A DNA stretch of 64,000 nt from Escherichia coli (GTDB lineage Bacteria > Pseudomonadota > Gammaproteobacteria > Enterobacterales > Enterobacteriaceae), in assembly GCF_003334405.1 (NCBI RefSeq), contig NZ_QOWM01000003.1. The stretch is one strand, 5' to 3'. This document shows positions 25,004 to 25,664 of the stretch, piece after piece. The notes under the pieces were generated by a model. The model saw nothing but the letters and a program-made list of their open reading frames with translations, ran no database searches and was not told the origin of the DNA. The position numbers and the translations under genes are program-made. How positions within the stretch are numbered: the first letter of the stretch is position 1; every line of letters starts with the position of its first letter.

Positions 25004-25360
25004 GCAGCTACTGACAAAATAGCCAGGACTCCACAAAACGCCTTTGTCGTAATACCTGACTGCAATATCTGGTCGATCTCGTCGCAGTAACCTACTCGAT
25101 ACGCCTTTGAGGCTGTTTACCAGACTGGATATCGCCAGTTTGGGAGGATAGTTAATTAACAAATGGACGTGATCTGGTCCGCCATCCATTTCAACCCGTT
25201 CAGCTTCAAAATCAGCACATACATTTGAAAAGTAAGTGCGTAGTTTTTCTGTCGCGTCATGGTCAAAAATCTGACGTCGGTATTTAGTAACGAAGACTAG
25301 GTGAACATGCTTCAGGAAAACACAATGCCTTCCGCGTCGGATATCGGTTTCTTTTTTCAT
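25004..25360 (-). pseudogene. tnpA: IS200/IS605-family TnpA (Y1 HUH transposase) fragment
   Basis: About 119 aa MKKETDIRRGRHCVFLKHVHLVFVTKYRRQ...DHVHLLINYPP... with HUH motif HVH; region that should carry the catalytic Tyr helix is not recognisable. Confidence 0.75.
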
Positions 25361-25382
25361 AGGCCAAAGTATGATTTGGCCC

Positions 25383-25664
25383 ATGAAACGACTACAGGCA
25401 TTCAAATTCCGGTTAAGACCAGGTGGTCAACAGGAGCGTGAAATGAGGCGCTTCGCAGGCGCATGTCGTTTCGTTTTCAATCGTGCTCTGGCGCTTCAGA
25501 ATGAGAATCATGAGGCCGGTAATAAATACATCCCTTACGGGAAAATGGCTTCCTGGTTGGTTGAGTGGAAAAATGCCACTGAAACGCAATGGCTTAAAGA
25601 TTCGCCCTCACAGCCATTGCAACAGTCACTGAAAGACCCTGAGCGGGCTTACAAAAACTTCTTC
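25383..25664 (+). pseudogene. tnpB: IS605-family TnpB (OrfB) N-terminal fragment
   Basis: 94 aa MKRLQAFKFRLRPGGQQEREMRRFAGACRFVFNRAL...ERAYKNFF matching the TnpB N-terminal domain; RuvC-like and zinc-finger regions absent. Confidence 0.75.

Follow-up and report, generated by a model that had tools for sequence, protein, structure and literature searches.

We analyzed a stretch of Escherichia coli DNA of 64,000 nucleotides (contig NZ_QOWM01000003.1; "the window" below) in which a palindrome lies between two divergent transposon genes, tnpA and tnpB. These genes belong to a remnant of IS609, an element of the IS200/IS605 family, that is truncated at both sides (Table 1). The first-pass annotation of the window, made from the sequence alone, called both genes correctly and placed their start codons 22 bp apart on opposite strands; to this we add that both genes are incomplete. 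The K-12 element that matches the one in the window is annotated as IS609 (1503161-1504908), and homology to IS609 in the window is restricted to positions 25004-25667. Over residues 1-119 the window TnpA is 94% identical to IS609 TnpA. Its C-terminal 19 residues, including ...RQYIEQQ..., are gone and unrelated read-through sequence stands in their place; the catalytic tyrosine was probably located in this missing segment. TnpB is 95% identical to its IS609 counterpart over about 95 of 402 residues, with an alignment that spans residues 1-97. Both transposon ends are absent, and because the subterminal hairpins of an intact copy, which transposition requires, fall outside the retained homology, the remnant is dead and cannot move.

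The palindrome was first described as a near-perfect one at 25359-25384, reading ATAGGCCAAAGTATGATTTGGCCCAT. Its letters are as quoted, and the 7-bp inverted repeat at its center, GGCCAAA (25362-25368) and TTTGGCC (25375-25381), is indeed perfect, but the palindrome is larger than noted. Its arms are 14 nt each, TTTCATAGGCCAAA (25355-25368) and TTTGGCCCATGAAA (25375-25388), are 93% complementary, and enclose a 6-nt loop. They pair throughout except at one position, an A.C mismatch when read on the + strand and G.U on the - strand, and they take in the two start codons together with the AAA (Lys) codon that follows each. The pattern GGCCAAA-N3-9-TTTGGCC has one match in the window, compared to 0.01 expected from shuffles. 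The RNA fold prediction that the first-pass annotation recommended gave a strong hairpin of -16.1 kcal/mol on the + strand and -19.6 kcal/mol on the - strand (z about -5; 0 of 200 shuffles equal it), with both start codons paired in the stem. As DNA, the predicted folding energies are -10.0 and -11.5 kcal/mol for the two single strands.

We also estimated how often such a stem would arise by chance. All 16384 possible 7-mers were enumerated in the tnpB-side segment between the putative -10 box and the ATG, with everything else held constant. Only 5 match the observed stability of the - strand hairpin, a local probability of about 3e-4, which becomes about 0.02 when multiplied by the roughly 65 family lineages examined. 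The palindrome is thus above local chance, yet only marginally so at the level of the family. The 56-nt variant of the window has exact matches in 941 records. Another inverted repeat of 7 bp, AATGCCT (25324-25330) and AGGCATT (25396-25402), lies within the first codons of tnpA and tnpB. It pairs in 146-nt folds, where it encloses the palindrome asymmetrically and is not concentric with it. A rough estimate puts the chance expectation at about 0.6 such 7-mer pairs in 150 nt, and the repeat may have a chance origin; its Serratia counterparts, GTGTCTT and AAGCCTT, are non-complementary.

The first-pass annotation considered that the palindrome might be a product of rearrangement, which would be implied if intact relatives lacked it. 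We reject an origin by rearrangement or truncation because intact E. coli IS609 copies have the palindrome, with differing mismatches. In the intact IS609 of strain C311, to which the O157:H7 copy is identical, the region reads CAC-A-GACCAAA gtatca TTTGGCC-T-GTG, compared to CAT-A-GGCCAAA gtatga TTTGGCC-C-ATG in the window. The exchange of CAC/GTG for CAT/ATG is compensatory; between the two copies one mismatch is repaired and another is created. The right arm is TTTGACC in K-12, CE10, and H105 and TTTAACC in Escherichia sp. MOD1, and across the Escherichia copies the predicted hairpin energy ranges from about -20 to about -6 kcal/mol. In the intact IS609 of strain C311 (locus L001, 2441-2872), the Prokaryotic Genome Annotation Pipeline (PGAP) puts the TnpA start at an ATG in the palindrome loop (MILWSVKKE...). 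This loop ATG is not conserved in relatives, and the family-conserved TnpA start lies 5 codons downstream.

Table 1. Positions of the palindrome, the truncated genes, and the predicted control elements in the window.
Feature	Position	Strand	Remarks
Whole palindrome	25355..25388	none	Arms 25355-25368 and 25375-25388, loop 25369-25374, mismatch 25361 A vs 25382 C
tnpA remnant open reading frame	24836..25360	-	IS609 DNA only 25004-25360, TnpA residues 1-119 of 138
tnpB remnant	25383..25673	+	About residues 1-95 of 402; IS609 homology stops near 25667
yedK remnant (SOS response-associated peptidase)	25666..26091	-	Lacks C-terminus, abuts truncated tnpB
tnpA start codon ATG (CAT on +)	25358..25360	-	Predicted leaderless transcription start; T at -1, A at +1
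tnpB start codon ATG	25383..25385	+	Predicted leaderless transcription start; C at -1, A at +1; 23 bp from tnpA start
tnpA predicted -10 hexamer CATACT (complement of agtatg)	25368..25373	-	7 nt before tnpA ATG
tnpB predicted -10 hexamer TATGAT	25370..25375	+	7 nt before tnpB ATG
tnpA weak -35 candidate TGTAGT	25391..25396	-	2/6 matches, 17-bp spacer, within tnpB codons
tnpB weak -35 candidate GTTTCT	25347..25352	+	2/6 matches, 17-bp spacer, within tnpA codons
TTGGCCT	25361..25367	-	7 nt between tnpA -10 and ATG; inner left arm
TTGGCCC	25376..25382	+	7 nt between tnpB -10 and ATG; inner right arm

The intergenic core in the IS609 clade

Scanning species-representative genomes with IS609 TnpA gave 80 loci with 69-95% identity, mostly in Enterobacterales and other Gamma- and Betaproteobacteria. 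Together with plasmid copies, these provided 69 distinct intergenic sequences. A single pattern, CAT-AG(A/G)CCAA..TATAAT-(6-8 variable nt)-ATG, is nearly universal among them. In 71 of 74 relatives, 21-23 bp separate the two start codons, and the distance from the A of one start codon to the A of the other has a mode of 23 bp and is 22-24 bp in 67 of 69. On the + strand, 33 of 69 relatives have the hexamer TATAAT 6-7 nt upstream of the tnpB ATG, and in 66 of 69 the hexamer at this place differs from TATAAT by one base at most. On the - strand, a hexamer 7-8 nt upstream of the tnpA ATG reads TATACT, TATAGT, or CATACT in most relatives and overlaps the + strand hexamer by 4 bp. The region therefore has the hallmark of bidirectional promoters, namely overlapping -10-like hexamers on opposite strands, each with A as its second base and T as its sixth. 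At the position expected for a tnpB -35 element, many non-enteric relatives have TTGTCA, and at the corresponding tnpA position most relatives have TTGAAG or TTGTAG. Hexamers with at least 4 of 6 matches to a -35 element at a spacing of 16-18 bp were found in 31 of 69 relatives for tnpB and 35 of 69 for tnpA, compared to a null expectation of 15%.

The starts of both genes have a composition that is typical of leaderless mRNAs, with no Shine-Dalgarno (SD) motif and a -10 box 6-8 nt from the start codon. An SD-like 4-mer precedes tnpA or tnpB in none of the 69 relatives. ATG is the start codon of tnpB in 70 of 74 relatives and of tnpA in 72 of 74, and a pyrimidine occupies position -1 in 64 of 69 (tnpB) and 69 of 69 (tnpA). 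The two solo-tnpB relatives examined likewise have TAAAAT 6 nt before the ATG.

Conservation is distributed unevenly between the two arms. The 7 nt on the tnpA side, with the family consensus TTGGYCT, are near-invariant across the 69 distinct elements (major-allele frequency 0.81-1.0). Their conservation exceeds that of the first and second codon positions of the flanking genes (0.88-0.89, compared to 0.61-0.69 at third positions) and that of the -10 box. This segment may fix the transcription start or serve as a binding site. The 7 nt on the tnpB side are the least constrained segment of the family (0.41-0.66) and mirror the left arm only in Escherichia.

Pairing between the arms shows no comparable conservation. 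The 29 sequences whose gap is 22 bp were aligned without gaps; of the alignment cells, 57.9% were paired, compared to 57.6% in 500 shuffles, of which 186 equaled or exceeded the observed value, so that covariation lends no support to a stem. When the tnpB-side 7-mer was randomized, the relatives fell at the null median (median percentile 0.41-0.44) and only the E. coli copies were extreme; no other hairpin in the family comes near those of the two E. coli IS609 copies in stability. On the basis of the pair counts and the randomized right arm, we reject an RNA structure conserved throughout the family. The hairpin is specific to Escherichia. Because its left arm lies in the most conserved non-coding segment and its right arm in the least conserved one, the Escherichia lineage must have gained its freely varying arm as a near-copy of the complement of the constrained one.

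More distant members of the IS605 group mostly differ in the length or sequence of this region. The type element of the group with divergent tnpA and tnpB, IS605 of Helicobacter pylori, resembles IS609 in its divergent genes and short intergenic region, but its gap is 51 bp, its tnpB has an AGGAG SD sequence and a TTG start, and it has neither an AGACCAA-TATAAT core nor a comparable palindrome. The gap is 36 bp in a Klebsiella relative with 51% identity and 56 bp in a Salmonella relative with 49% identity, both without the IS609 core; an Acidovorax relative with 54% identity retains AGACCAAGTATATT. A relative with 52% identity from an actinobacterium, on a Mycobacterium avium plasmid (L100, 1572-1595), has a 22-bp divergent gap of unrelated sequence. 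Its annotated starts are CTG for tnpA and GTG for tnpB, with TACGGT 6 nt before the tnpB start, and it may represent an independent compact layout with leaderless-style spacing. We therefore reject a compact core general to the IS605 group, since all of these relatives but that of Acidovorax have gaps of 36-56 bp or a differing sequence; the core is specific to the IS609 clade.

Salmonella Abortusovis plasmid pSAbAus (L004, ~1775-1800) carries a degenerate IS609-like copy in which the conserved segment ATAGACCAAAG and the tnpA start have been deleted, and which keeps TATAAT-AACAGTC-ATG before tnpB. Many plasmid relatives are tnpB-only, and their matches in the plasmid search open on the tnpB start or shortly beyond it (query position 322 or later). 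In two of these, on Salmonella (L006) and Klebsiella (L007) plasmids (~1420-1502), a left-end hairpin, CCCCGTCCTTCAGGxCGGGG, lies ~45-50 bp before the ATG. The tnpA cassette appears to be a cleanly separable module.

A proposed bidirectional promoter and its rivals

We propose that the palindrome is probably the dyad-symmetric core of a bidirectional sigma-70 promoter that serves IS609 tnpA and tnpB. Two -10 hexamers, TATGAT on the + strand and CATACT on the - strand, would overlap on opposite strands within the palindrome "loop", and each "arm" would correspond to the 7 nt between a -10 box and its gene, followed by the ATG and the AAA second codon of that gene. From this arrangement we infer that RNA polymerase binds either way round and initiates on the A of each ATG or within a base of it, so that two start sites 23 bp apart would give rise to two back-to-back leaderless mRNAs. 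Because each -35 region would lie inside the first codons of the opposite gene, the two modes of binding should be mutually exclusive, and this exclusivity would couple the output of TnpA to that of TnpB. The layout would by itself force part of the symmetry, namely CAT/ATG, TTT/AAA, and the overlapping -10 boxes. The inner match of GGCCAAA to TTTGGCC would then be a substitution-level peculiarity of the Escherichia IS609 lineage that arose in a freely varying segment.

The first-pass annotation proposed that the palindrome might act as a shared operator or as a hairpin in either 5' leader. The idea of a shared control region for divergent transposon genes agrees with our findings, as does the capacity of the sequence to fold into a strong hairpin around the two start codons; for its mechanism, the comparative evidence favors a promoter over a leader hairpin or operator. 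Because the -10 boxes, conserved within the loop, lie 6-8 nt from the ATGs and relatives have no SD motif, the mRNAs are predicted to have no 5' leader in which a hairpin could form. Each leaderless transcript would hold no more than the last six bases of one arm.

Several observations weigh against the promoter. No transcription start-site data for IS609 or insQ were found in the searched literature, and the leaderless starts are deduced from the sequence. Because both -35 candidates have only 2 of 6 matches, in the window as in canonical E. coli IS609, a strict sigma-70 promoter scan returned no hits in 24900-25800. All sampled Escherichia copies outside the window lineage start tnpB with GTG, and several do so for tnpA as well; leaderless mRNAs of E. 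coli are poorly translated from GTG. The IS609 of E. coli may therefore be a down-tuned form of the family design. The near-invariance of TTGGYCT is not explained by the promoter model alone. Finally, the inner-arm match in E. coli is improbable by pure chance, both locally and, less so, family-wise, and an added hairpin function is therefore possible.

The inner match itself can be accounted for without any function. It may have arisen by chance substitutions or by templated (quasi-palindrome) mutation, with one arm serving as the template for the other, and have persisted by descent in an immobile element, an explanation that we hold to be possible, if doubtful. Consistent with it, the right arm lies in the unconstrained segment, the Escherichia copies form a graded series of TTTAACC, TTTGACC, and TTTGGCC, and, by our own count from the alignment, the palindrome has more than its share of the substitutions that separate the window from intact IS609 (5 of 28 columns, compared to 5 of 123 elsewhere). 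IS609 copies sit at fixed chromosomal loci, several of those sampled are pseudogenized, the exact window variant recurs across many records, and the family-wise probability is not compelling. The low local probability and the paired change from CAC/GTG to CAT/ATG, on the other hand, look non-random. Templated mutation is a plausible neutral origin that the present sampling does not separate from selection. In a refinement of the leader hairpin of the first-pass annotation, the hairpin could mask the start codons: RNAs that read in from outside the element, or from promoters deeper in the opposite gene, would carry both arms, and the 14-bp stem would hide the AUG of the downstream gene, block its translation, and so guard against activation by read-through, a kind of protection that has been described for IS200 and that IS10 and IS50 also possess. 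We regard this as unlikely. It draws on the strong predicted fold with both start codons in the stem, the small fraction of 7-mers that do equally well, and the equivalent stem with its compensatory exchange in intact IS609; moreover, every + strand A.C mismatch in the Escherichia copies is a G.U pair in tnpA-sense RNA, and an SD-sequestering stem-loop has been demonstrated experimentally for IS200 tnpA (PMC4513863). Against this, the hairpin is missing in at least 60 relatives that share the 21-23 bp layout, and the stability of the Escherichia stem drifts over a wide range. Judging by the -10 boxes in the loop, the main transcripts should begin beyond the upstream arm, and an RNA with an internal AUG and no SD would be poorly translated even when free of the hairpin. 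The decay of the stem among Escherichia copies, together with pseudogenes at fixed loci, argues for weak or no selection. The extended palindrome may accordingly be read as an Escherichia-specific embellishment of uncertain function, possibly with none.

Binding of a protein to the palindrome appears less probable still. As a shared operator, the two 14-bp half-sites, with centers 20 bp apart, would bind a dimeric protein of the host or the element that represses both promoters. The dyad symmetry does lie exactly over both -10 boxes and both start sites, and at AGRCCAA, the half on the tnpA side, conservation is higher than at coding positions, as might be the case for a binding site. Only this half-site is conserved, however, and the other varies freely, which is unexpected for the operator of a dimer. 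No supporting evidence, including any for an operator-binding protein, was found in the searched literature, and we know of no candidate protein; in the IS200/IS605 family, TnpA recognizes single-stranded hairpins at the ends of the element and TnpB is guided by RNA. We consider an operator improbable. It is very improbable that the palindrome is a single-stranded DNA hairpin recognized by TnpA in the manner of the subterminal end hairpins of the family. Transposition in this family is known to proceed through single-stranded DNA, and the hairpin is predicted to be stable in that form, but it lies mid-element, is missing in relatives that have the same end hairpins, and shares no sequence with the end hairpins of intact IS609, CCCCGTCCTTCAGGGCGGGG and CCACGTCCTTCAGGGCGTGG; we reject an end-like hairpin on this lack of similarity. 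An intrinsic terminator is likewise rejected, as no U-run follows the stem (CGACTAC follows on the + strand and AAAAAAG on the - strand). A terminator scan did not list the palindrome site, its three terminator-like hits all lying elsewhere, and Rfam covariance models gave no match at E<=1 in 24600-26200.

The remnant and its surroundings

In the window, the palindrome is a relic, and at most a weak promoter, because neither gene is complete and the element has lost both ends. The PGAP record (L002, 2847-3371) lists the window tnpA as intact, encoding a 174-aa transposase (WP_001347174.1), of which only residues 1-119 are TnpA. The genes emrE-ybcL-ybcM (22640-24679, +), which in K-12 belong to the DLP12 prophage region, sit between fliE and the remnant. 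Their placement and the truncation of yedK point to an old insertion-deletion scar at this locus. Positions 24990-25690 are 100% identical to the chromosome of E. coli strain 7/2, where the annotated order is fliE-emrE-ybcL-ybcM-[IS remnant]-yedK'-yedF-yedE-yedD-amyA. Of 5426 complete E. coli genomes, 4996 contain IS609-like DNA, at a median of 2 places.

For this window, the message is a small one: the palindrome is part of a dead IS609 fragment adjoining yedK, a tidy and fairly ordinary feature. More interesting are the by-products of the analysis, the family-wide architecture and the unexplained invariant TTGGYCT.

Wider meaning and comparison with known systems

The relative amounts of TnpA, which acts in excision and insertion, and TnpB, which acts in RNA-guided re-insertion and retention, should decide whether IS605-group elements spread or are lost, and how this balance is set has barely been described. 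We speculate, tentatively, that IS609-clade transposons across Gamma- and Betaproteobacteria express TnpA and TnpB as two leaderless mRNAs from one bidirectional promoter of ~22 bp, with exclusive polymerase binding setting the TnpA:TnpB ratio. TTGGYCT would be a dedicated control site, for fixing the start or binding a factor, and the Escherichia palindrome would add a second layer of silencing by masking the start codons. Neither a bidirectional tnpA/tnpB promoter, leaderless expression of these genes, nor the invariant TTGGYCT is described in the literature that we searched. If this proposal is true, the 22-bp core would be among the most compact two-gene control regions known, and a natural case of two leaderless genes on one promoter in proteobacteria, where leaderless mRNAs are rare. 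Such a core could find use as a minimal part for bidirectional expression.

The predicted starts resemble those of known leaderless genes. Lambda cI, transcribed from PRM, and Tn1721 tetR are expressed as leaderless mRNAs, with the -10 box 6-8 nt ahead of the AUG. IS609 is like them in its -10-to-ATG distance, lack of an SD sequence, family-wide preference for ATG, and A-rich second codon. It is unlike them in that two genes stand back to back on one core, that the canonical E. coli IS609 uses GTG, and that its leaderless status is predicted.

The suggestion in the first-pass annotation that regulatory hairpins are typical of this family holds for IS200, whose architecture is different. Translation of IS200 tnpA is controlled by a 5' untranslated region (5'UTR) stem-loop that sequesters the SD sequence, together with art200 and Hfq (PMC4513863). 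IS200 and IS609 belong to the same transposon superfamily, and both have a stable stem-loop, predicted in the case of IS609, over the translation start region of the transposase. However, IS200 has a long 5'UTR, a near-perfect SD sequence inside the stem, and no tnpB (PMC4513863), whereas IS609 has no SD sequence, probably no 5'UTR, and a stem that is not conserved in relatives.

A further parallel is with bacterial bidirectional promoters, whose divergent starts lie 7-25 bp apart. Divergent bacterial start sites are most often 18 bp apart, with 10 and 23 bp also common, and polymerase bound in one orientation blocks binding in the other (PMC12825309; PMC10268837). IS609 departs from these promoters (Warman et al. 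2021, via PMC10268837; PMC12825309) in that its predicted starts coincide with the start codons, which would yield two leaderless mRNAs. Its intergenic region is also only 21-23 bp, and the E. coli copies have weak -35s and a 14-bp palindrome. The likenesses are as follows: overlapping, near-symmetric -10 elements lie between divergent starts, the site separates divergent genes that are functionally linked, exclusive binding of polymerase is expected, and the predicted 23-bp separation of the IS609 starts is one of the three common spacings.

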